Source: Luteitalea sp. (GTDB lineage Bacteria; Acidobacteriota; Vicinamibacteria; Vicinamibacterales; CAVVIG01). Taken from it: DNA of 64,000 nt. Below, piece by piece: positions 2-60,233 of the stretch. Each line of letters opens with the position of its first letter. Position 1 is the stretch's first letter. The notes below the pieces were generated by a model. It was not told where the DNA came from and searched no databases. It saw only the letters and a program-made list of their open reading frames with translations. Location: the NCBI GenBank assembly GCA_009380045.1, contig WHSN01000001.1, positions 27,753-91,752 on the forward strand, written 5' to 3'. A program made the position numbers and the translations under genes.

Positions 2-1258
2 GGTCCAGCCCCGAACACCAACGAGCGGCTGGTCAGGCCGGCGGCAACCGACGAATCGGATCAGGACATCAGGCGTCAAGTCGTGGTCGACGACTTCGAG
101 GCGCCCGACGCGAAGCTGACGATCCTGCGCCGTGACAAGACGAAGGTGCCGCGCACCTGGTACTTGCACAAGCTGCAGATGCGATCGGTCGGCATACAAG
201 CGGCGATGCCGTTCGAAGCGCTGCTCACGAACGCCGTGCCGCCCGGACAGATCAACACGCGGGGTACGTTCGGTCCCTGGAATCGGCGCAACCCCGGCAT
301 CACGCCGCTCGACGGCACGTTCACGTTCGACAACGCCAATCTCGGGGTCTTCGGCGGCATTTCAGGCATCCTCTCGGCCCACGGTACCTACTCGGGCTCG
401 CTCGCACGCATCGCAGTCGACGGTGAAACCGATACGCCCGATTTCATGGTCACGATCAGCGGTCACCCGCTGCCGCTCAAGACGAAATATCACGCGCTCG
501 TGGACGCGACCACCGGCAATACCACGCTCGATCCGGTGCACGCGACATTCCTGAATACGTCGCTCGTCGCCAAGGGTGGCGTTTACGAGCTCGACGATCG
601 CGACGGACGCGAGGTCCGGCTGGACGTGACGATGGACGATGGACGGCTCGAGGACATCATGCGGATGTCGGTGAAGACGCCGGAGCCGCCGATGATCGGC
701 GTGCTCCATCTCGCGACCAAGCTCATTCTGCCGCCCGGAAAAATCGACGTCATCGAGAAGCTCCAGCTCGATGGGCGGTTCGCGATATTGAAGGGGAGAT
801 TCACCGACCGCGGTGTGCAGGACAAGATCAACAATCTGAGTGGCCTCGCGAGCGGGAAGCAACTGCCGGACGGCAAGGCCGGCATCACCGGGGTCACGTC
901 GGACTTCACCGGTCAGTTCAGTCTCGCGAATGGAGTGCTCAGCCTGCCGATCGTCACCTTCGACGTGCCCGGCGCCATCGTCGAGATGAAGGGCCAGTAC
1001 GGGATGCGGGGCGAGACCATCGACTTCGCCGGAAACCTCTTCATGGACGCCAAGATCTCGGACACTGTGACCGGTTGGAAATCGTTCATCGCCAAGCTCG
1101 CCGATCCGTTGTTCAGGAAGAACGGGAAGACGGTGATTCCGCTGAAAGTGCATGGATCCCGCAGTGCCCCCGAGTTCGGCGTGGATGTGAAGAAGGCTCT
1201 CACGCGCAACACACCCGAGACGCCGGCCGCCGACATCAAGCGCCGAGACACGAAGTAG
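2..1258 (+). CDS. AsmA-family protein, C-terminal portion (5' end lies upstream of window)
   Basis: The frame of ORF 83..1258 stays open back to nt 2, so the gene is truncated by the window edge. The C-terminal region (FTGQFSLANGVLSLPIVTFDVPGAIVEMKGQYGM...IDFAGNLFMDAKIS...IPLKVHGSRSAPEFGVD) looks like the AsmA-like C-terminal domain. Recognised by eye. Confidence 0.55.
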   Translation, partial: GPAPNTNERLVRPAATDESDQDIRRQVVVDDFEAPDAKLTILRRDKTKVPRTWYLHKLQMRSVGIQAAMPFEALLTNAVPPGQINTRGTFGPWNRRNPGITPLDGTFTFDNANLGVFGGISGILSAHGTYSGSLARIAVDGETDTPDFMVTISGHPLPLKTKYHALVDATTGNTTLDPVHATFLNTSLVAKGGVYELDDRDGREVRLDVTMDDGRLEDIMRMSVKTPEPPMIGVLHLATKLILPPGKIDVIEKLQLDGRFAILKGRFTDRGVQDKINNLSGLASGKQLPDGKAGITGVTSDFTGQFSLANGVLSLPIVTFDVPGAIVEMKGQYGMRGETIDFAGNLFMDAKISDTVTGWKSFIAKLADPLFRKNGKTVIPLKVHGSRSAPEFGVDVKKALTRNTPETPAADIKRRDTK

Positions 1259-5326: not shown

Positions 5327-6616
5327 TTATACGCGCTCGGGCTCCTCCGCTTCAAGCGCTTCGACGAAGGGAAGCCCGCCGGTGAGCTCGGCCGCCTGCA
5401 ACATTCGCGGGACGCGATCGATCACCTCGATCTGTGTCACCTCTCTGCCGCCTTCTCCGGCCTGGAGGTCTTTGAACTTGCGGGCCTTGATGAGCACGTT
5501 GCCCTCGAGTGAGCCGACAGCCTGGTTGTAGGCTTCGAGTGTGGACTTCATGCGGCTGCCGAGGGTGTCGAACTTCTCGGCCAGCGTGCAAACCGAGTCG
5601 TACAGATTGCGTCCGAGGTCGCAGATCTTGCGAGCGTTCTCCTCCATGGCCTCCTGCTGCCATCCGTACGCCACCGCGCGTAGCAGCGCGATGAGCGTCG
5701 TCGGGCTCGCGGGGATCACCTGGCGCTCCACCCCGAACTCGATCAGCGACGGATCCTGTTCGAGGGCGGCGCTGAAGAACATTTCTCCAGGGAGGAACAT
5801 CACGACGAACTCGGGAGATGAGGGAATATCGGTGAAATAGGTCTTGGCCCCGAGCTGGCTGAGGTGCGTGCGCACTTGCCGTGCGTGGTCCGACAGCAGT
5901 GTCTGCCGGGTCGCTTCATCGGGCGCCTCGAGTGCCTTGAGATAGGCGTCGAGCGGCACTTTCGCGTCCACGACGACGTGCTTGCCCCCCGGCAGGTTGA
6001 CAATGACGTCGGGCCGCAGGCGGCGATCGTTGCCATTCAACGTCTGCTGCTCGTTGAAGTCGCAGTGCTCGAGCATGCCTGCGAGCTCGACCACCCGCTT
6101 CAATTGGATCTCACCCCAGCGGCCGCGGACCCCAGGGCGCTTCAACGCATCAACCAGGCGACGGGTCTCGGACTGGAGCTCGCGACCGGTGGCGTCGAGC
6201 GACGCCACCCGTTGGAGCAGCGTCGCACCCTCCTGGACGCGGCGGCGTTCGGCGTCCCTGATCTCGCCGTCCACGCGATCGAGGGTGGTCTTCATCGGCG
6301 CGAGCAGATCCTCGATCGCCTGCTTACGGGCGTCGACGTCCGCCGTGGTCTGGCTCCTGGCGGCGCGCAACCGCTCCTCGGCGAGATGGAGGAAGGCTTC
6401 GTTGTTGCTCTTCAGCGCATCGGCGCTGAGCGACTGGAACGCCTCGCGAAAGCGCGACTCCGCATCCTGATACGCCTTGAGCCGTTCGGCATGAACGGCT
6501 CGATCCGTTTCAAGCTCGGTCCGCAGCCGCGCGCGCCCGGGCCGGCTCGCCAGCCACCCCATGAATGCACCGATGGCGAGACCAACAACGAGGACGAGCG
6601 TGAGGGACGGCGACAT
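5327..6616 (-). CDS. rmuC: DNA recombination protein RmuC
   Basis: ORF 5327..6868 has an N-terminal TM helix, a long coiled coil and an RmuC nuclease-like core (GRWGEIQLKRVVELAGM...PDVIVNLPGGKHVVVDAKVPL...FVVMFLPGE). The likely start is ATG 6616 (MSPSLTLVLVVG). Confidence 0.85.
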   Translation of the reverse strand: MSPSLTLVLVVGLAIGAFMGWLASRPGRARLRTELETDRAVHAERLKAYQDAESRFREAFQSLSADALKSNNEAFLHLAEERLRAARSQTTADVDARKQAIEDLLAPMKTTLDRVDGEIRDAERRRVQEGATLLQRVASLDATGRELQSETRRLVDALKRPGVRGRWGEIQLKRVVELAGMLEHCDFNEQQTLNGNDRRLRPDVIVNLPGGKHVVVDAKVPLDAYLKALEAPDEATRQTLLSDHARQVRTHLSQLGAKTYFTDIPSSPEFVVMFLPGEMFFSAALEQDPSLIEFGVERQVIPASPTTLIALLRAVAYGWQQEAMEENARKICDLGRNLYDSVCTLAEKFDTLGSRMKSTLEAYNQAVGSLEGNVLIKARKFKDLQAGEGGREVTQIEVIDRVPRMLQAAELTGGLPFVEALEAEEPERV

Positions 6617-14947: not shown

Positions 14948-17900
14948 CTACTCGCGTTTCCGCCGCACGCTCTTGACCACCACGTAGAGCACCGGAATGA
15001 AGGCCAGATTCAGGAACGTCGACAGGACCATCCCCCCGGCGACCGTCGTGCCGACGGAATGACGAGCCTCCTGACCGGCGCCGCTGGCGAAGACCAGCGG
15101 CATCACGCCGAGAATGAACGCGAGCGAGGTCATGAGGATCGGCCGCAGACGGATGCGCGCGGCCTCGATGGCCGCGTCCACGACGCTCATCCCCCGGCCC
15201 CGCAGCTGTTCGGCGAACTCGACGACGAGAATGCCGTTCTTGGCCGAGAGGCCAATCAGCATGACGAGGCCGATCTGGCAGTAGACGTCGTTGATCAGCC
15301 CTCGGCTCCACTGGGCGACGAGCGCCCCGAGGATGGCGAGCGGCACCGACAGCAGGATGATGAAGGGCAGCGTGAGGCTCTCGTACTGCCCGGCAAGCGT
15401 CAGGTAGACGAGCAGCAAGCCGAGCCCGAAGATCGCCAGCGACTGCTGGCCGGCCCGCAGCTCCTCGAGCGACAGGCCCGACCACGAGAAGGTCATGCCT
15501 TGCGGCAGCGTCGCGCTCGACAGCTGCTCCATCGCCTGGAGCGCCTGGCCGGAGCTGAAACCGGGAGCGGCCGATCCGATGATCTCGGCCGACCGAAACA
15601 GGTTGTAGTGCATGATCGTCTTCGGCGCCGTCGTCTCGGTCACCTCGACGAGGTTGCTGAGCGGCATCATCCGTCCGTCCGCTGTCCGCACCGACAACCG
15701 TTCGATGTCCTGAGGCGCGGCGCGGAACTGCTGGTCGGCTTGCACGTAGACGCGGTACGACCGGTTGTTGAAGTCGAAGTCGTTGACGTAGGCCGAGCCG
15801 AGCAGCACCTGCATCGTCCCGGTGATGTTGAGCAGCGACATGCCCAGGGTCTTGACCTGCTCGCGATCGATCTTCACCGCCAGCTGCGGGTCGTTGGCGG
15901 TGAACTGCGTGAACAGCCCGGCGAGCCCCGGCGTTTGATTGCCGCGGGCGATGATCTGGTTCGCCGCGGTCTCGAGGTTCGTAATCGGCCCGCCGCTCTG
16001 ATCGAGCAGCTCGTAGGTGAAGCCGCCGAACTGGCTCAGCCCGGCGATCGCGGGCGGCAGGAACGGAATCACCGTCGCGCCGGCGATCTGGCTGAAGGCG
16101 CCGAACATCCGCCTGACCAGCGCCGGCGCCGACTGTTCCGGACGGCCCCGTTCCTCGAACGGTTTCAGGCTCAAGAACAGGATGCCCTGGTTGGGGGCGG
16201 TGCCGGTGAAGCCGAATCCGCCGGCCGCGAAGACGCGATCGGTCTCCGGGATCTTCCGTATCGCATCCTCGACCTGCCTGACGATGTCCATCGTGTAGTC
16301 GAGCGACGCCCCCTGCGGCCCCTGGATCAGCACCATCACGTAGCCCTGATCCGCCTCGGGCACGAAGCCGGTGGGCACGCTTCGATACACCCAGTAGGTC
16401 GCACCCAGCAGAGCGACGAATACCAGCGCGACGACCAGCCGCGCCCGGATCAGCACCCGGAGCGCCGATACCAGCATCGACGTTCCGCCGTCGATGACGC
16501 GGTTGACGGCGCGGAAAAACATGCCTTTGGGCCTGGCGGCCTTGCCCAGAAGCAGTCCCGCCAGTGCCGGCGTCAGCGTCAGGGCGTTGAAGGCGGAGAT
16601 CGCCATCGAGAAGGCGATGGTGAGCGCAAACTGCTGATAGAGCCGCCCGGTGGTGCCCGGAAAAAAGGCGACCGGCACGAAGACCGCCCCGAGGACGAGC
16701 GCCGTCGCAATGACGGCGCCGGTCACCTCCGCCATCGCCGCCGATGCCGCCTGGCGCGCCGTCCGGTGGTAGTCGTGAATATGCCGCTCGATGTTCTCGA
16801 TGACGACAATCGCATCGTCGACCACGAGGCCGGTCGCGAGCGTGACGCCGAAGAGCGTCAGCGTGTTAATCGAGAAGCCGAACAGCTTGACGAAGGCAAA
16901 CGTCCCGATCAGCGACACCGGAATCGTGATCGCGGGAATCAGCGTCGTCCGCCAGTTCTGCAGGAAGAGGAACATGACCAGGACGACCAGGGCGATCGCT
17001 TCGAGCAGCGTCGTGATCACCTCGCGGATCGATTCGGCGACCACGGTGGTGGTGTCGAACGCGATTTCGACCTTCAGCCCGGGCGGATAGCGACGCGAGA
17101 GCCGTTCGAGGGTCGCCTGCACGTCACGAAACACCTGCAGGGAGTTCGCGGTCGGAAGCTGCAGGACACCGAAGCCGATCGCGTCCCGTCCGTTGTAGCG
17201 CGCGGATTGGGAATAGCTCTCGGCGCCGAGCTCGGTGCGGCCGACGTCGCGGACGCGGACCAGCCCGCCGTCGGGCATCCGTTTCACGATGATGTCGTCG
17301 AACTGTGAAGGCTCGACGAGCCGGCCTTCGGCGCGGACGCTGATCTGATAGCTCTGGCCGCTCCGCTGTGGCGGCGCGCCGACCTGCCCGGCCGCGACCT
17401 GGACGTTCTGCTCGCGCAGCGATGACACCACCTCGTCCGCGGTGACACCGCGACCGGTCAGCCGGTTCGGATCGAGCCAGAGACGCATCGCGTAGCGCCG
17501 CTCGCCGAAGACGAAGATGTCGCCGACGCCGGGCACCCGTTTCAGCTCGTCACGGATGAACCGATCGACGTAGTTGCTGACGAAGGCGATGTCGTACTCG
17601 TCGTTCTCGGCGAACGCTCCCGCCGCGAGCACGAAGTTGCTCGACACCCTGGTCACCGAAATGCCGACGGCGTTCACTTCGTTTGGCAGCCGTCCGGTCA
17701 CCTGTGATATCCGGTTCTGCACGTCGACGGCCGCGATATCCAGGCTTCGAGCGAGGTTGAAGGTGACGGTGATCGTGCAGGTGCCGTCGCTGCCGCTCGA
17801 CGACGTCATGTACTGCATGCCCTCGATGCCGTTGAGCGCCTGCTCGAGAGGGTTGGTCACGGCGGTCTCGACCGTTTGCGCGTCGGCGCCGTTGTAGAAC

Positions 17901-18043
17901 GCGATCACCTGCACCTGTGGCGGGGCGAGCTCTGGAAACTGCGCGATCGGCAGCGTCGGAATCGCCGTCGCGCCGGCCAGGATGATGACCAGCGAGCACA
18001 CGCTGGCGAGGATGGGGCGGCGGATGAAGGTGTCTACAAACAC
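14948..18043 (-). CDS. RND (HAE1/AcrB-like) efflux transporter permease
   Basis: ORF 14948..18043 encodes 1031 aa with a typical AcrB-family N-terminus (FVDTFIRRPILASVCSLVIILAG) and a 12-TM architecture. The start codon is GTG. Confidence 0.95.
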   Translation of the reverse strand: MFVDTFIRRPILASVCSLVIILAGATAIPTLPIAQFPELAPPQVQVIAFYNGADAQTVETAVTNPLEQALNGIEGMQYMTSSSGSDGTCTITVTFNLARSLDIAAVDVQNRISQVTGRLPNEVNAVGISVTRVSSNFVLAAGAFAENDEYDIAFVSNYVDRFIRDELKRVPGVGDIFVFGERRYAMRLWLDPNRLTGRGVTADEVVSSLREQNVQVAAGQVGAPPQRSGQSYQISVRAEGRLVEPSQFDDIIVKRMPDGGLVRVRDVGRTELGAESYSQSARYNGRDAIGFGVLQLPTANSLQVFRDVQATLERLSRRYPPGLKVEIAFDTTTVVAESIREVITTLLEAIALVVLVMFLFLQNWRTTLIPAITIPVSLIGTFAFVKLFGFSINTLTLFGVTLATGLVVDDAIVVIENIERHIHDYHRTARQAASAAMAEVTGAVIATALVLGAVFVPVAFFPGTTGRLYQQFALTIAFSMAISAFNALTLTPALAGLLLGKAARPKGMFFRAVNRVIDGGTSMLVSALRVLIRARLVVALVFVALLGATYWVYRSVPTGFVPEADQGYVMVLIQGPQGASLDYTMDIVRQVEDAIRKIPETDRVFAAGGFGFTGTAPNQGILFLSLKPFEERGRPEQSAPALVRRMFGAFSQIAGATVIPFLPPAIAGLSQFGGFTYELLDQSGGPITNLETAANQIIARGNQTPGLAGLFTQFTANDPQLAVKIDREQVKTLGMSLLNITGTMQVLLGSAYVNDFDFNNRSYRVYVQADQQFRAAPQDIERLSVRTADGRMMPLSNLVEVTETTAPKTIMHYNLFRSAEIIGSAAPGFSSGQALQAMEQLSSATLPQGMTFSWSGLSLEELRAGQQSLAIFGLGLLLVYLTLAGQYESLTLPFIILLSVPLAILGALVAQWSRGLINDVYCQIGLVMLIGLSAKNGILVVEFAEQLRGRGMSVVDAAIEAARIRLRPILMTSLAFILGVMPLVFASGAGQEARHSVGTTVAGGMVLSTFLNLAFIPVLYVVVKSVRRKRE

Positions 18044-18054
18044 AGGGAATGGGT

Positions 18055-18099
18055 ATCTGCGATCTGCGATGAGGCGATCTGTGATCCGGCGATGTGCGG
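18055..18099. repeat. Tandem 7-8-nt repeat array (ATCTGCG-like, ~6 units)
   Basis: Read directly: ATCTGCG ATCTGCG ATGAGGCG ATCTGTG ATCCGGCG ATGTGCGG. It lies in the spacer between the MFP stop (18152) and the RND permease start (18043). Confidence 0.8.
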
Positions 18100-18106
18100 C
18101 CCGGTC

Positions 18107-18150
18107 AACGGCAATGTGGTGAACGGCAATCTGGCCAACGGCGTTCGGCG
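18107..18150. repeat. Tandem 15-nt repeat (AACGGCAATNTGGNN, 3 units)
   Basis: Read directly: AACGGCAATGTGGTG AACGGCAATCTGGCC AACGGCGTTCGGCG, directly after the MFP stop codon on the minus strand. Confidence 0.8.
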
Positions 18151-18151
18151 A

Positions 18152-19255
18152 TCAGGGCGCTGGCGCGATTGGGACGCCATCGGCCAGCCGCTGCGCCCCG
18201 GCCACGACAATGCGATCGCCTGCCGCCAGGCCATCCAGCACCGTATAGCTGTCGCCGACGATCGGGCCGACCTTGATGGCGCGCTGCTTCGCGACCAGAC
18301 CGGGCGAGCCATCGGCGCCGGCGCTCTCCGCGGCGACGAAGGCAAAATGCTGCCCGTTGATGCGCACGACGGCGGTCACCGGCACCACCAGCCCCTCTCC
18401 CTTCTTCCAGACGATGCGCGCCCGGACGTACTGCGAAGCGCGCAGGGCGCCGGTGGGGTTCGGCACCAGGCCCTTCACCAGTACCGACTGCGTCTGCTCG
18501 TCGGCGCTCGGGGAGATGAAGCTGACGGCAGTCGTCGCGATCGTCTCCGATCCATCGCTGTTCAAGATCCGGATCGGCAACCCGATCTCGAGAGCGGCGG
18601 CGCGCTCGATCGGCACCTGCACGTAGACCTCGAGCGACGCGTTCTGATCGATCGTGGTGAGCACCGTCTGCGGCGACACCTGGTTACCGACCCGCACCGG
18701 CACGTCGCCGACCACCCCTGCGGTGGGCGACGTGATGGTGAAGTACTGCAACTGCACCTGTTGCTGCTGAACCTGGGCACTCAGGGACTGCAGGCGTCCC
18801 TCGGCGGCGCTCAGGCCGGTTTCGGCCGCCTCGAGCTCCTGGCGGCTGACCGCGCCGGCCCGGAACAGCTCCTCGGCGCGCTGGTGCTGCTGCTTCGCGA
18901 ATTCGACGTCGGCCTCGCGCGCCGACCGGTCGGCTTCCTGGCTGGTCACGGCCGCCTGCTGACGCTCGGGGTCGATCTGCATCAGACGCGCCCCGCGGGC
19001 GACGCGGTCGCCAGATTTCACGAAGATTTGGGTGATCTGGCCGTCAATCTGCGGTTGAACCGCCGTGGATCGCATCGACTTCACGGTCGCGACATACTCG
19101 CTGGCGTCTTCGATCGCCGTCGTGTGTGCGGTTTCGAGCTGAACGGCCGCCGGAGGAAACGCGGCCGGCCCGGCCGGACCGGCCGGGGCACGGTTGCAGG
19201 CGGGACCAAGGAACGCGACGCCGAGCGCGGCTAGCGCCGCGTGTCTGAGATTCAT
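18152..19255 (-). CDS. RND efflux periplasmic adaptor (MFP) lipoprotein
   Basis: ORF 18152..19255 has a lipobox (FLGPAC), a coiled-coil hairpin and barrel-sandwich/beta-barrel motifs typical of AcrA/HlyD-family adaptors. Confidence 0.9.
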   Translation of the reverse strand: MNLRHAALAALGVAFLGPACNRAPAGPAGPAAFPPAAVQLETAHTTAIEDASEYVATVKSMRSTAVQPQIDGQITQIFVKSGDRVARGARLMQIDPERQQAAVTSQEADRSAREADVEFAKQQHQRAEELFRAGAVSRQELEAAETGLSAAEGRLQSLSAQVQQQQVQLQYFTITSPTAGVVGDVPVRVGNQVSPQTVLTTIDQNASLEVYVQVPIERAAALEIGLPIRILNSDGSETIATTAVSFISPSADEQTQSVLVKGLVPNPTGALRASQYVRARIVWKKGEGLVVPVTAVVRINGQHFAFVAAESAGADGSPGLVAKQRAIKVGPIVGDSYTVLDGLAAGDRIVVAGAQRLADGVPIAPAP

Positions 19256-24315: not shown

Positions 24316-24318
24316 GGT

Positions 24319-24400
24319 GGGAGTTGGGAAACTAGGAATTAGGAATTAGGAATTGGGAATTGGGAATTGGGAATTGGGAGTAGGAATTGGGATCGGGAGT
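24319..24400. repeat. Heptamer tandem array RGGAATT (~12 units)
   Basis: Read directly: AGGAATT x3 (24334-24354) and GGGAATT x3 (24355-24375), flanked by degenerate units (GGGAGTT, GGGAAACT; GGGAGT, AGGAATT, GGGATC, GGGAGT). It starts 3 nt after the M28 stop and ends 44 nt before the dsbA-like ATG. Confidence 0.9.
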
Positions 24401-24444
24401 GTGCGACTGACGACCGCTGCCGGCAGGTGACGAAGGGCATTCCT

Positions 24445-52859: not shown

Positions 52860-53159
52860 ATGCCCGTTGGATTCTCACGTTCGGAAGTGCAAGCCATCGC
52901 CGCGCTCGCCAACCTGGAGCTCGACGAATCCGAGCTCGACCTGTTTGCCCGCCAACTCGGCGAGGTCCTCGACTACGCGACCCAGGTCCAGAACATCGAC
53001 ACGACAGGAGTGCCGCCGACCGCCAGCCTCGGGGTTCGACACGAAGCTGACCGCGCCGACCTCGTGCAGCCGTCGCTCGATCGCGATCTTGCATTGAGCA
53101 ACGCTCCCGACGCCAGCCTTGAGGCTGGCCTGTTCAAGGTGCCCCGGGTCATCGGATGA
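52860..53159 (+). CDS. gatC: Asp/Glu-tRNA amidotransferase subunit C
   Basis: This is the tail of ORF 52713..53159. The start is ATG 52860 (MPVGFSRSEVQAIAALANLELDESELDLFARQLGEVLDY). It has an ATGA overlap with gatA. Confidence 0.85.
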   Translation: MPVGFSRSEVQAIAALANLELDESELDLFARQLGEVLDYATQVQNIDTTGVPPTASLGVRHEADRADLVQPSLDRDLALSNAPDASLEAGLFKVPRVIG

Positions 53160-54610
53160 ACCGGCTCGGCACCGTCCGCGAAATCCGCGACGCGTTCCGA
53201 CGCGGCGAGCGGTCGGCAGTCGACGTCTGCACGGAGGCGCTCAGCTGCATCGCCATGCGCGATCCCGAGCTGCACGCGTTCAACACCATCACCGGTGAAC
53301 AGGCACTCGCCCGGGCAGCGGCCATCGACAGCGACCGCGCCCGCTGGATCGATCGCCCGCTCGCCGGCGTTCCGGTCGCGCTCAAAGACAACCTGTGCAC
53401 CCGAGGCGTGCGCACCACCGCCTCGTCGCGGATCCTCGAACACTTCGTCCCGCCGTTCGACGCCACCGCGGTCGCCCGCCTCGAGTCGGCCGGCGCGGTA
53501 ATCGTCGGCAAGACCAACTGCGACGAGTTCGCGATGGGTTCGTCCAACGAGAATTCAGCGTTCGGCCCGGCCCGCAATCCCTGGGCGCCGGACCGGATTC
53601 CGGGCGGGTCGAGTGGTGGGTCGGCAGTCGCCGTTGCATCGGGAATGACTCCACTGGCACTGGGATCCGACACCGGCGGCTCGATCCGTCAGCCGGCGGC
53701 GTTGTGCGGAATCGTCGGCCTCAAGCCGACGTATGGCCGAGTCTCGCGCTACGGCCTGCTCGCGTTCGCCTCCTCGCTCGATCAAATCGGTCCGCTGGCT
53801 CGCACCGTGGAGGACGTGGCGATCGCCCTGACCGTGATCGCCGGCGCTGACCCCGCCGATGCGACGACCGCGGCGGAACCGGTGCCCGACTTTTCGGCCG
53901 GCCTGAGCAGCCATGCTCGCGGCATGCGGGTCGGCGTGCCCCAGACGCTCGTGGATCAAGGTGTTGACGGCGAGGTGACCGCAGCCTACCGCGCCGCCCT
54001 CGACGTGCTCCGTGACCGCGGCGCAACACTGATCGACATCGACCTGCCGTACGCAGGCGCCGCGATTCCGGTCTACTACCTGATCGCCACCGCCGAGGCG
54101 AGCTCGAACCTGGCGCGCTACGACGGTGTGCGATATGGGTTCAGGGATCGAGGAACCGACGGCGACTCGACCCACCGCCGCGACCTGGACCTGAAGACGA
54201 TGTACGCCCGGACGCGAGCCAGGGGCTTCGGGCCAGAAGTGAAGCGACGAATCATGCTCGGCACTTACGTGCTGAGCGCCGGCTACTACGATGCCTACTA
54301 CCTCAAGGCGCAACAGGTGCGCACGCTCATCCGGCGAGACTACGAGCGCGCCTTCGAACAGGTCGAGGTGGTCGCGATGCCGACCAGCCCCACGCCTGCC
54401 TTCAAGATCGGCGAGCGCGTGTCCGACCCGCTGCAGATGTATCTCGCCGATGTGTTCACGGTCAGCGCCAATCTCGCAGGCCTGCCGGCGGTGAGCGTGC
54501 CGTGCGGCTTCACCGGTAACGGCCTGCCGATCGGCCTGCAGCTGACCGGCCGCACGTTCGAGGAGCTGACGATGCTCCGGATCGCCCACGCCTACGAGCA
54601 GGGGAAATGA
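53156..54610 (+). CDS. gatA: Asp/Glu-tRNA amidotransferase subunit A
   Basis: ORF 53156..54610 carries the amidase signature (GGSSGGSAVAVASG...GSDTGGSIRQPA). Confidence 0.95.
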   Translation: MNRLGTVREIRDAFRRGERSAVDVCTEALSCIAMRDPELHAFNTITGEQALARAAAIDSDRARWIDRPLAGVPVALKDNLCTRGVRTTASSRILEHFVPPFDATAVARLESAGAVIVGKTNCDEFAMGSSNENSAFGPARNPWAPDRIPGGSSGGSAVAVASGMTPLALGSDTGGSIRQPAALCGIVGLKPTYGRVSRYGLLAFASSLDQIGPLARTVEDVAIALTVIAGADPADATTAAEPVPDFSAGLSSHARGMRVGVPQTLVDQGVDGEVTAAYRAALDVLRDRGATLIDIDLPYAGAAIPVYYLIATAEASSNLARYDGVRYGFRDRGTDGDSTHRRDLDLKTMYARTRARGFGPEVKRRIMLGTYVLSAGYYDAYYLKAQQVRTLIRRDYERAFEQVEVVAMPTSPTPAFKIGERVSDPLQMYLADVFTVSANLAGLPAVSVPCGFTGNGLPIGLQLTGRTFEELTMLRIAHAYEQGK

Positions 54611-54621
54611 CGATACACATA

Positions 54622-54786
54622 AATTTCAGGATTTCAGGATCTCGGATTTCACGACGCCGGGCGCGATTCCTCGTTCGCAGATTCGCACGTCGCCTCCTCC
54701 CTGCGAATTTACGGGCGAGTTTCCAACCTTCAAATCCGAATCCCAAAATCCAATCCCAAATCCTGAAATCCTGAAATCCTGAAATT
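54622..54786. repeat. Paired inverted octamer arrays (ATTTCAGG / CCTGAAAT) giving a perfect 19-bp inverted repeat 127 nt apart
   Basis: The left arm AATTTCAGGATTTCAGGAT (54622-54640) is the exact reverse complement of ATCCTGAAATCCTGAAATT (54768-54786). Degenerate units extend the arrays to 54653 on the left and from 54731 on the right. Confidence 0.9.
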
Positions 54787-55810
54787 GTCCTGCCACCCCC
54801 TGCCCCTTGACTGGCCGTCGTATGGCGACGAGAAGCTCCTCGAGGTGCGCATGTGCGATCTCGGGCTGACCCTCGCCGGCACCGCCGTCGAGCAGCGGAT
54901 CGCGCGCGTCGATGCCGAGCTCGTCGCGCGCGGCCTGGTGCGCCCTCACTACTGGCTGTCGGACGAGTGGTTCACGCCGGACGGGGTGCCTGGCGTCGCG
55001 GTGCCGTTCTACTTGGCCCACCTCCGGCTCGAGAAGCTCGAGCTGGCGCAGATGCTCGAGGTGGAAGGCGGCGACGAGGACACGTGCCTCAAGATCCTCC
55101 GCCACGAGGCGGGCCATGCGACCGACAACGCCTACCAGCTTCGCCGGCGGCCCACCCGCCGGCAGCTGTTCGGCAACCCGAACACCCCATACCCCGAATA
55201 CTACACGCCAAAACCCTACAGCAAGAGCTTCGTGCAGCACCTGGATCACTGGTACGCGCAAAGCCATCCCGACGAGGACTTCGCGGAAACCTTCGCAGTG
55301 TGGCTCGACCCGCAGTCCACATGGCCGAGCCGCTATGGTGGGTGGCCGGCGCTGCGCAAGCTTGAGTACATGGATCGCCTGATGCGTGCCGTGGCGCGCG
55401 TCCAACCCAGGATCACCATCGAGACCGAGCTCGATCCGCTGTCCGAGCTCACCAAGACGCTCGGCGAACACTACAACCAGAAGCGCGCGCATTACGGTCT
55501 CGACCATCCCGACTTCTATGAAAGCGACCTGAGGAACCTGTTCTCGGACGCGCCTGAGTATGCGAAGCGCCCCTCGGCGGCGCGTTACATCAGCCGCATC
55601 CGCAAAGAGGTCCGCACCACCGTCGCCAGCTTCACCGACAGCTACCAGTACACAATCGACCAGCTGATCGAGAAGCTCCTCCGCCGCTGCCGCGAGCTGA
55701 ACCTGCGGCTGACCGAATCCGAGGAAGCGACGAAAATCGACTTCATGGTCTTCCTGACGGTGCAGACGATGAACTACTTGCACAGCGGCCGGCATCGCGT
55801 CGCGCTATGA
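54785..55810 (+). CDS. Putative zinc-binding metallopeptidase (Peptidase_Mx-like)
   Basis: ORF 54785..55810 begins at TTG inside a repeat arm, so the start is uncertain. The HExxH motif is LKILRHEAGHATDN, followed by a downstream DEDFAETFA. Confidence 0.65.
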   Translation: MSCHPLPLDWPSYGDEKLLEVRMCDLGLTLAGTAVEQRIARVDAELVARGLVRPHYWLSDEWFTPDGVPGVAVPFYLAHLRLEKLELAQMLEVEGGDEDTCLKILRHEAGHATDNAYQLRRRPTRRQLFGNPNTPYPEYYTPKPYSKSFVQHLDHWYAQSHPDEDFAETFAVWLDPQSTWPSRYGGWPALRKLEYMDRLMRAVARVQPRITIETELDPLSELTKTLGEHYNQKRAHYGLDHPDFYESDLRNLFSDAPEYAKRPSAARYISRIRKEVRTTVASFTDSYQYTIDQLIEKLLRRCRELNLRLTESEEATKIDFMVFLTVQTMNYLHSGRHRVAL

Positions 55811-56838
55811 GTGCCGGCAAGCTCCGTATTCTCGCGCTCGTCCACCGGCACCTCATTCCACCGGACAGCATCCCCGAGGGCACCGACCTCGTCGCCGCTC
55901 CGTGGCGCACGGAGTACGACGTCATCTCCACGCTGCGGTCGCTCGGCCACGAAGTGCGCCCGCTCGGCGTCCACGACGATCTCGGCGACATCCGCCGCAC
56001 CGCGGAGGAGTGGAAGCCGCACGTCGCCTTCAACCTTCTCGAAGGGTTCGACGACGTGACGATCTTCGATCAGAACGTCGTCAGCCACCTGGAGCTGTTG
56101 AAGCTGCCCTATACCGGGTGCAATCCACGCGGGCTCCTCCTCGCCCGCGACAAGTCGCTGTCGAAGAAGCTGCTCACCTATCACCGGATTGCGGTGCCTG
56201 AATTCGACGTCTTCCGGATCGGCCGTCCGGTCCGGCGCCCGAAGCGCTTGCCGTACCCGCTGATGGTGAAGTCGCTGACGCAGGAGGCCTCGGTCGGCAT
56301 CTCGCAGGCGTCGGTGGTTGACAGCGATGAAAAGCTCAAGGAGCGCGTCGCCTTCATCCACGAAAGCATCCGGACCGCGGCCATCGCCGAGCGCTATGTC
56401 GAGGGCCGCGAGCTCTATGTCGGCGTCCTCGGCAACCAGATGCTGCAGTCGCTGCCGGTGTGGGAGCTGTTCTTCTCGAACATGCCGGAAGGCGCCAGAC
56501 GGATTGCGACCGATCGGGTGAAATGGAGCGTCAAGTACCAGAATAAATACGGGATCGAAAGCGGCCTCGCCAGGGATTTGAGCGACCCTGTGGCCGAGCG
56601 GATCCAACACGTCTGCAAGCGCGCGTATCGCGCCCTCGAGTTGAGCGGTTACGCGCGGATCGACCTGCGGCTCGATGAAACGGGCAACGTGTGGGTGATC
56701 GAAGCGAACCCGAACCCGCAGATCGCCAGGGGCGAGGACTTCGCCGCCTCGGCCGAGAAAGTCGGGCTCAGCTACGAGTCACTGCTGCAGCGGATTGTGA
56801 ACCTGGGGATGCGGTGGCAACCGGAGAGCTTTGCGTAG
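55807..56838 (+). CDS. ATP-grasp enzyme, D-alanine--D-alanine ligase-like family
   Basis: ORF 55807..56838 has an ATGA overlap with the metallopeptidase. ATP-grasp motifs are present (DKSLSKKLL, YPLMVKSLTQEASVGIS, ERYVEGRELYVGVLG, ARIDLRLDETGNVWVIEANPNP). It ends in tandem stops TAG TAG. Confidence 0.8.
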   Translation: MSAGKLRILALVHRHLIPPDSIPEGTDLVAAPWRTEYDVISTLRSLGHEVRPLGVHDDLGDIRRTAEEWKPHVAFNLLEGFDDVTIFDQNVVSHLELLKLPYTGCNPRGLLLARDKSLSKKLLTYHRIAVPEFDVFRIGRPVRRPKRLPYPLMVKSLTQEASVGISQASVVDSDEKLKERVAFIHESIRTAAIAERYVEGRELYVGVLGNQMLQSLPVWELFFSNMPEGARRIATDRVKWSVKYQNKYGIESGLARDLSDPVAERIQHVCKRAYRALELSGYARIDLRLDETGNVWVIEANPNPQIARGEDFAASAEKVGLSYESLLQRIVNLGMRWQPESFA

Positions 56839-57963: not shown

Positions 57964-59862
<1,899 letters not shown>

Positions 59863-59880
59863 CGAGATTGATTCCTCTGT

Positions 59881-59970
59881 TCTGGCCGTTGGCGTTCTGG
59901 CCGTTGGTCATCCGTTCCCGCCGCTGGCCATGGGTTCCGGCCGTTTGGCCATCCGCTTCGGCGTTTACCG
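59881..59970. repeat. Degenerate tandem 15-21-nt repeats in the dnaK leader
   Basis: On the plus strand: TCTGGCCGTTGGCGT / TCTGGCCGTTGGTCA (13/15 identical), then about 20-nt units each ending in GGCCA. On the minus strand, the repeat units carry ATG triplets at 59952, 59931 and 59911. Confidence 0.75.
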
Positions 59971-59976
59971 CTGTGG

Positions 59977-60056
59977 TTGAAGTGAAGATACAAGATATAT
60001 GAGTGCTAGTAAAGCATTTTATCTTAGTGTTTAAACATCATGCATCGATGTTTAGC
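59977..60056. promoter_or_regulatory. AT-rich divergent control region between dnaK and hsp20
   Basis: A sharp local drop in GC is visible by eye. On the minus strand there is a possible TTTACT-17 nt-TATCTT promoter enclosing CTAGCACTC, an 8/9 match to one CIRCE half-site. There are also AAGATA/TATCTT inverted hexamers. Confidence 0.4.
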
Positions 60057-60233
60057 TGGACCATTCAACTTGCCTGCTGCCGCTGACCGTATGTGTTGTG
60101 AACGCAGGGGCTGACGCCCTTACCTGCCGTGGAGCCTAGATAGTTAGTCTGGCGGACTCGATGGCCCTGCGACGGCTCAGCGCCGGGCTGGCCCATCGCC
60201 ACGTGCGCATCGCGACCCGCCTTGTGAGATCAT

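Follow-up and report, generated by a model that had tools for sequence, protein, structure and literature searches.

Genes at the gatA/peptidase junction

The window, by which we mean the whole stretch of 64,000 nucleotides analysed here, carries on its plus strand a gatA gene of the amidase family (53156-54610; 484 aa), whose orthologues contain the PF01425 domain and which ends with the TGA stop codon at 54608-54610. It is followed on the same strand by a gene for a Peptidase_Mx protein (PF15887), read from TTG 54785 to 55810 (341 aa), and by a gene for a D-Ala-D-Ala-ligase-like ATP-grasp protein (55807-56838; PF07478 or PF02655 in the orthologues), which overlaps the peptidase gene by an ATGA sequence. 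Between gatA and the peptidase gene lies a palindrome of approximately 165 bp, which is called the element in the following.

The start of the peptidase gene coincides with the right edge of the element, the first base of TTG 54785 being the final base of the last octamer. In the peptidase frame, the nearest upstream stop codon is TGA 54764-54766, and this TTG is the only ATG, GTG or TTG codon before the conserved Trp codon at 54812. The initial annotation had taken it as the sole in-frame start, which is correct for these three codons but does not hold for CTG, which occurs in frame at 54779 and 54800. No Shine-Dalgarno-like sequence was found upstream of the TTG. The homologues of the peptidase (336-352 aa) have the N-terminal motif (D/E)W-x-S-x-x-D-E/D-K/Q-LL-x-V-R-M-C-D-L in common, which reads DWPSYGDEKLLEVRMCDL in the window, and because this conserved motif is encoded there, translation should begin upstream of 54809. 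Read from TTG 54785, the protein starts with MSCHPLPLDW, compared to MVDAxPE...W or MTIEPEW in the relatives. The public record contains the downstream protein, identical in sequence, as GEU82_00340 (P0001, 319 aa) from a MAG of Luteitalea sp. (Acidobacteriota, Vicinamibacterales); NCBI gives ATG 54851 as its start. This leaves out 22 codons, and the last 14 codons before the annotated start (DWPSYGDEKLLEVR) agree with the conserved N-terminus of the family. On the basis of the sequence, the public annotation appears to mis-start the peptidase gene, which may serve as a warning for annotators. ATG 54851 might also act as an internal start; it is preceded by GAGG, which is itself encoded by the conserved LEVR codons.

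Structure of the element

The outermost parts of the element form an exact inverted repeat of 19 nt, with positions 54622-54640 being the reverse complement of 54768-54786 and the arms lying 127 nt apart. It is built of octamer arrays with the units ATTTCAGG and CCTGAAAT. The left arm (54622-54653, plus strand) consists of an A followed by ATTTCAGG, ATTTCAGG, ATCTCGG and ATTTCACG, its outer 19 nt representing the exact arm of the inverted repeat. The right arm begins with an inner part of degenerate 6-7-nt units of the types AAATCC and AATCCC (54731-54761, plus strand; complements GGATTT and GGGATT), which are mostly unpaired in the minimum-energy fold, and ends with an outer part of three CCTGAAAT units plus a T (54762-54786, plus strand). 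The last octamer base and this T pair with A54623 and A54622. The core between the arms (54654-54730) is richer in G+C and contains an imperfect hairpin of its own (54670-54687 with 54702-54719; 18 nt, 78%). When extended, the inverted repeat comprises 22 nt at 95% complementarity, and an alternative register of 26 nt at 92% (54623-54648 with 54752-54777) is present in addition to further registers of 12-13 nt. The initial annotation had described octamer arrays at 54623-54653 and 54762-54785, degenerate units from 54731 onwards, an exact 19-bp inverted repeat with a separation of 127 nt and a stem able to slip between registers. The arrays read as described, the inverted repeat held when recomputed, and the alternative registers are those just listed; the distance between the gatA stop and position 54623 had been given as 13 nt and is actually 12 nt.

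The element is real and statistically exceptional. Its arrays show a period of 8 with 3.8 and 3.5 copies, plus period-7 units. A 16-mer consisting of two units has five matches with up to three mismatches in the window, all of them inside the element, versus 0.10 expected, which excludes a chance origin of the octamer arrays. A search of the 64 kb for inverted repeats whose arms are separate, share an exact seed of 12 nt and lie no more than 400 nt apart detected no second case, and BLAST searches of the window and the orthologous loci revealed no second copy of the element. The G+C content of the element is 0.47-0.57, compared to approximately 0.68 in its surroundings.

Folded as RNA, the region 54605-54800 yields -59.4 kcal/mol (z -4.74). 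The stem has a length of 19-29 bp as RNA, its base is located 11 nt past the gatA stop, and it includes the first two bases of TTG 54785, which are paired, together with the whole stretch preceding them, with the sequence located 12 nt past the gatA stop. As single-stranded DNA, the same region folds with -32.9 kcal/mol (z -4.18). There was no match to Rfam 15 up to E = 10 in 54300-55100 and none at the gathering score across the window. A terminator scan gave nothing within 54611-54786, and no promoter-like sites were found in 54300-55100. Assignments to attC sites or CRISPR were rejected by inspection, as their defining end motifs and spacing are absent, and the same applies to REP or REPIN sequences, as neither end of the element carries a GTAG or CGTC tag.

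The gatA/peptidase junction in related bacteria

Most of the relatives examined (Vicinamibacterales) lack the element at the orthologous junction. The gatA and peptidase genes overlap by 28 nt, with no spacer between them, in L001 (83% peptidase identity), L002-L004 (80%) and L006 (85%), and the long MV(D/E)... N-terminus accompanying this overlap is the commonest type among 36 peptidase homologues. In L133 (81% peptidase identity), the two genes overlap by ATGA, and the peptidase gene begins with ATGACGATCGAGCCAGAGTGG (MTIEPEW). The window contains a relic of an ancestral ATGA stop/start together with the first three peptidase codons, ATGACGATA, at 54607-54615 on the plus strand (ATG ACG ATA, coding for MTI), and the relic start at 54607 heads an orphan ORF of 55 codons (54607-54774; MTIHINFRISG...), which runs into the arrays. 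When both junctions are compared, GAATGACGATCGAGCCAGAGTGG of L133 stands opposite AAATGACGATACACATAA of the window, then the palindrome follows, and AAATGACGAT of the window matches GAATGACGAT of L133. The C-terminus encoded by gatA is AYEQGK* in the window versus AYEHETEWSTRHPSL* or similar in the relatives. As judged from these sequences, the palindrome lies within the former N-terminal coding region of the peptidase gene, which leaves the TTG at its right edge as the only canonical start. The boundaries of the insertion are inexact because the flanks are too diverged from those of the relatives, with about 8 nt to the left and about 23 nt to the right of the palindrome being devoid of a counterpart.

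Two further relatives have a spacer at this junction. The closest one (P0002; 88% peptidase identity) has a gatA-peptidase spacer of 59 nt, and L132 (83% peptidase identity) has an array palindrome of 102 nt with the unit ATTGCAGG / CCTGCAAT, its spacer running from TGA through ATTGCACAACGGCAGGATGGGGGGATTGCAGG...CCTGCAATGCGGCAATCCTGCAATGCGCG to ATG. The L132 unit differs from that of the window at one position, which is changed in both arms. The pairwise identities of the three genes are star-like, and the palindromes of the window and L132 may go back to one insertion or to two. Because the peptidase gene is the third in a tight gatC-gatA-peptidase-ATP-grasp string of the relatives, overlapping gatA, the site of the element is an internal operon junction and not the start of an operon, as initially assumed. 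The overlap with the start codon follows from the position of the element and does not speak for a switch that evolved for this purpose.

Elements with the same ends in soil metagenomes

Metagenomes were scanned for a pattern of two ATTTCAGG units and two CCTGAAAT units separated by 100-130 nt (ATTTCAGGx2-N100-130-CCTGAAATx2). It matched six soil-metagenome contigs (L126-L131; G+C 0.60-0.63), which represent five further loci. An element of the ATTTCAGG type, of which the 64 kb contain a single copy and which is missing from most orthologous junctions, is present at five other loci. The ends AATTTCAGG...CCTGAAATT are identical at the window locus and these five others, and all 11 of the 11 readable ends stop in one phase, with an A at position -1. 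Only the array parts of the family members can be aligned, the cores being unrelated. The core of the element is not similar to those of the other family members, and short-word BLAST against the rest of the window and the junctions of the relatives yielded nothing above chance. Each of the family members folds as a long hairpin (z -4 to -11). Because the pattern demanded perfect unit pairs at a distance of 100-130 nt, the picture of arrays that are perfect outside and degenerate inside is partly a matter of ascertainment, and this arrangement is missing in L090 and in the left arm of L127.

The family members are located 0-4 nt from stop codons, compared to 12 nt after the gatA stop for the element of the window, which touches the next start. 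At L126/L128, the element abuts the TAA stop of the upstream gene; at L127, 2 nt separate it from the next ATG; and at L131, the element lies 4 nt from the glmU stop on one side and 14 nt from the glmS start on the other. L126 and L128 represent one locus: their flanks and core are identical, but the left units number four and seven, respectively. A contig with a glmU gene 91% identical to that of L131 (L135) contains an array of ATTCAGA 7-mers at the glmU junction and ends inside this array, and P0123 has a glmU-glmS spacer of 106 nt. The first three units of L129 and L130 are the same, including the variant AATTGAGG. The arms of L127 are imperfect, with ATTTCAGG opposite CCTTAAAT, and the units of L131 diverge independently. 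A comparison of the flanks of the six loci revealed no consistent target-site duplication, a CTTG direct repeat being present at L130 only; the palindromic AATT at both ends of the element is indistinguishable from the inverted repeat itself.

Two additional observations were made on these contigs. L126 (2702-2781) and L128 (8462-8546) carry a second array palindrome with the unit AGGCTTT directly after another stop codon, which differs in unit number and sequence between these otherwise near-identical contigs. In L131, an extra inverted unit (ATTTCAAGGATC) is located outside the right arm (1134-1150, minus strand). It contributes, 8 nt before the ATG of glmS, an AAGGA that resembles a ribosome-binding sequence, which suggests that G-rich units may double as Shine-Dalgarno sequences.

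A wider class of short-unit arrays

A scan of a genome collection with the 16-mer ATTTCAGGATTTCAGG yielded about 15 real arrays among the 119 matches listed, most of the listed matches being chance hits within genes, e.g., in codons of a VFQDFR motif. A viral scan gave one match, which was judged to be a chance hit in a coding sequence. The real arrays among the matches listed come from Acidobacteriota (L011, L099 and L125), from three loci of one high-G+C MAG (L034, L084 and L090), from Prosthecobacter (L096), from Marinobacter (L026) and from a member of the Bacteroidia, where the array is located between tRNA genes (L012). The units of L012 are GGATTTCA on the left and AAATCC(C/G)AAAATCCC on the right, resembling the inner right arm of the window. 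This contig contains four array hairpins with four units (2690-2765, 2850-2945, 5376-5457 and 5912-5979), two of them in consecutive tRNA spacers, and because of these four different units, the array class is bound to neither one unit nor one phylum.

In all retrieved DNA, a TRF-based search revealed 14 inverted array pairs, whose units are of many kinds. Of the pairs outside the selection by the search pattern, eight have the G-rich array first and two show the opposite order. Units other than that of the window occur in inverted array pairs at L126/L128 (AGGCTTT), L012 (several) and L034 (a 9-mer), as well as at L011, L090 and L125. The arrays of this class can follow terminal genes, and they also occupy the spacers of convergent genes and of tRNA genes. 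In L123 (4935-5040), which belongs to a rumen Bacteroidia MAG, an array of ATTTCAAG and ATTTCAGG runs into TTTGGGGTTTTGGGG, a ciliate-telomere-like string.

Comparison with known repeat systems

The only directly relevant literature that we found on inverted tandem arrays or repeats of Acidobacteria is a study of GGGAATC heptamer arrays in Xanthomonas (Rehm et al. 2015, PMC4692102). These occur at about 186 sites, which are approximately 90% intergenic and on average 28 nt away from the nearest ORF, and 70-75 cases represent convergent inverted pairs able to form stem-loops. They are mostly transcribed, their positions are conserved between species at variable length and sequence, and a function was not found (PMC4692102). 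Also covered in this study are the STRR described by Mazel et al. 1990, which in Nostoc have the unit GGGGA(C/T)T; few of them are paired there as inverted repeats, and some are located between operon genes such as pecE-pecF (PMC4692102).

Like the Xanthomonas arrays, the element is composed of head-to-tail units of 7-8 nt near the end of an ORF, which form two convergent arrays able to pair; its family lies between housekeeping genes and varies in length or sequence at the same locus (L126 vs. L128, L131 vs. L135 and the window vs. L132). It differs in its octamer unit, in its host phylum Acidobacteriota, in its conserved outer ends (AATTTCAGG) and in its location inside a former coding overlap, and because its units carry GG only, no G-quadruplex is possible. 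With STRR, the element shares intergenic tandem units rich in G, A and T, and the AATCCC/AAATCC units of its inner right arm resemble the complement AATCCCC, whereas unit and host phylum differ. The element fits the kind represented by the Xanthomonas arrays and STRR in all tested features except the potential for G-quadruplexes, and adds fixed ends and an octamer unit to it.

Other repeat families are less similar. Correia/NEMIS elements of Neisseria and ERIC of enterobacteria measure 100-170 bp, have inverted ends, lie between genes and are co-transcribed with them. Correia hairpins are RNase III substrates, and the elements duplicate a TA target. The members of both families share their sequence over the whole length, whereas the family described here has only the ends in common, has tandem arrays as arms and shows no target duplication. 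REPs are single palindromes of 20-40 bp with GTAG or CGTC tags, which are tied to RAYT transposases. The element resembles REP, BIME and REPIN sequences as an extragenic palindrome present at several loci, often just after stop codons, but it lacks the tags, its arms are arrays, and no RAYT gene was seen.

Origin of the element

We assign a probability of roughly 0.55 to the reading that the element is a copy of an intergenic "repeat-array palindrome" class that arose or landed at the junction as selfish or mutational DNA and not as an evolved regulator. In such a class, a core that is self-complementary and specific to its locus would be flanked by two arrays of a 6-9-nt unit in convergent orientation, and the copy of the window would belong to the ATTTCAGG subfamily found in soil bacteria. 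It would have arisen or landed in the lineage of the window inside the stop-start junction of gatA and the peptidase gene, thereby cutting off the old start codon from the latter. The units of the arrays would be gained and lost by replication slippage, and variant units would spread along the arrays, while the likeness of the arms may be kept by template switching within the palindrome, by selection for pairing or by both. In favour of this reading are the lack of the element at most orthologous junctions, the family with common ends, the rapid turnover of units, the arrays with other units in the same contigs, in other phyla and in three more spacers of the window, the precedent of Xanthomonas, the long hairpins of all family members and the negative Rfam, promoter and terminator searches. 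The reading is challenged by the presence of only one ATTTCAGG-type copy in 64 kb and by the fixed terminal phase with an A at -1, which is not predicted by independent slippage at each locus and points to copying between loci, as expected for a mobile element.

Accordingly, the element may alternatively be a MITE that transposed into the gatA/peptidase junction, its octamer arrays serving as terminal or subterminal binding sites of a transposase encoded elsewhere. We regard this as possible, albeit with distinctly less confidence. Apart from the termini AATTTCAGGATTTCAGG...CCTGAAATCCTGAAATT, which are identical at six unrelated loci and stop in one phase, it would account for the three units shared by L129 and L130, including AATTGAGG, for sizes of 133-165 bp and for the occurrence of both filled and empty states of the junction among the relatives; moreover, L011, L034 and L096 carry the same terminus among the genome-scan matches listed. 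However, the CTTG at L130 is the only sign of a target-site duplication, the cores are unrelated between copies, unlike those of ordinary MITE families, and neighbouring array palindromes of the same contigs use quite different units. In addition, copies at orthologous sites have altered their unit and period (L132 and L135), no transposase gene was noticed beside any copy, and we know of no partner transposase for these ends.

It is rather unlikely that the element is a selected cis-acting RNA, which would hide the peptidase start, aid re-initiation from the gatA stop or provide an RNase III site separating the gatCA message from that of the peptidase and ATP-grasp genes. The initial annotation had already proposed that the stem hides the initiation region, and this is borne out as far as the strong fold is concerned, whose base lies 11 nt past the gatA stop and which pairs two bases of the TTG. 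Further points in favour are that the element stands in place of an ancestral overlap, which had provided coupling, that the one unit position distinguishing L132 from the window is changed in both arms and that family members are located between operon cistrons. On the other side, the structure is absent in most relatives with the same operon, which does not fit a dedicated switch, the arms of other members are not kept perfectly complementary (ATTTCAGG vs. CCTTAAAT in L127; L131), and arrays of the same class follow terminal genes or lie between convergent genes and between tRNA genes. Overall, a regulatory reading of the element is only partly supported.

We give little credence to the idea that the convergent arrays are scars of templated repeat addition, and not of ordinary transposition or slippage. 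The same G-rich unit of 7-8 nt would have been added to the two 3' ends of a break or an element, which were then joined across a locus-specific filler; the enzyme might be a primase-polymerase, a reverse transcriptase or a hitherto undescribed transposase. If true, this would explain why the G-rich array tends to be 5' on each strand, why one end phase (AATTTCAGG) is fixed at unrelated loci, why the cores are unrelated yet self-complementary and why units of the type G2-4 A1-2 T1-3 occur in Acidobacteriota, Bacteroidota, Xanthomonas and cyanobacteria.

An action of the element as DNA, either as a phased protein-binding array or as a cruciform, is very unlikely. The octamers are perfectly repeated, their G2-4 A1-2 T1-3 composition recurs across phyla, and the single-stranded DNA folds stably (z -4.2), but a period of 8 bp does not keep in phase with the turns of the DNA helix, and the units differ widely between loci of one contig. 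To our knowledge, there is no candidate protein binding such arrays. A spacer of 127 nt between the arms makes the extrusion of a cruciform from duplex DNA kinetically unfavourable, so a cruciform, which the initial annotation had considered, is unlikely on general grounds. Finally, an intrinsic terminator of gatCA, as also considered in the initial annotation, with a promoter of the peptidase operon downstream is highly improbable: a stable hairpin does start 12 nt past the gatA stop, but the sequence after the A+T-rich stem (AAAUUGUCCUGCC) contains no U run, the "loop" measures 127 nt, the terminator scan was empty in the element and no promoter-like site was found in 54300-55100, the start codon of the peptidase gene lies within the stem, and the genes overlap in relatives.

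Consequences for the peptidase gene

Returning to the preferred reading of the element as a copy of the array class, it most likely represents tolerated selfish or mutational DNA at this locus. The translational coupling of gatA and the peptidase gene by their overlap has likely been lost, and the peptidase gene likely depends on a weak TTG start without a ribosome-binding sequence, which is buried in a stem of 19-29 bp. Because of this buried start and the lost coupling, the peptidase and ATP-grasp genes are probably expressed at a lower level, or in a way that relies on ribosomes arriving at the gatA stop or on cleavage of the stem. Ribosomes ending at this stop, 11 nt before the stem, could open the stem and then re-initiate, or a double-strand-specific RNase could cut it.

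Intergenic arrays of short units have been known since 1990 from cyanobacteria and since 2015 from Xanthomonas, without a mechanism or function. The locus extends this knowledge by a subfamily of soil Acidobacteriota with octamer units and fixed ends, by evidence for the class in Bacteroidota and, from one labelled contig, in Verrucomicrobiota, and by the empty, short and long states of one gene junction among relatives. It also represents a case of an array element splitting two overlapping genes and forcing the use of a new start codon. With these alleles and the split genes at hand, the origin and cost of such arrays become testable by comparing alleles.

Further arrays in the window

Including the element, the window has four array-filled spacers, the others being located at 18044-18151, 24316-24444 and 59879-59955. 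The spacer at 24316-24444 extends from the stop of an M28-peptidase gene (24315) to the ATG of a gene for a DsbA-like lipoprotein (24445) and consists wholly of GGGAATT/TAGGAAT heptamers in one orientation, with about nine copies. The GGGAATT array at 24320-24392 differs by one base from the GGGAATC unit of Xanthomonas, being far nearer to it than the octamer of the element, and its GGG runs suffice for a G-quadruplex. A single inverted unit (ATTCCTA) overlaps ATG 24445, and there is no hairpin fold (z -0.6). The spacer at 18044-18151 separates two minus-strand genes (18152-19255 and 14948-18043) and contains ATCTGCG 7-mers (18055-18098) and GGTCAACGGCAATCT 15-mers (18103-18142). At 59879-59955, three copies of a unit of 15-20 nt (GCCAACGGCCAGAAC, dnaK strand) closely precede dnaK, which starts at 59862 on the minus strand. 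They have a CAACGGC motif in common with the arrays at 18.1 kb. Beyond these units, the divergent region between dnaK and hsp20 contains an A+T-rich stretch at 59985-60060.
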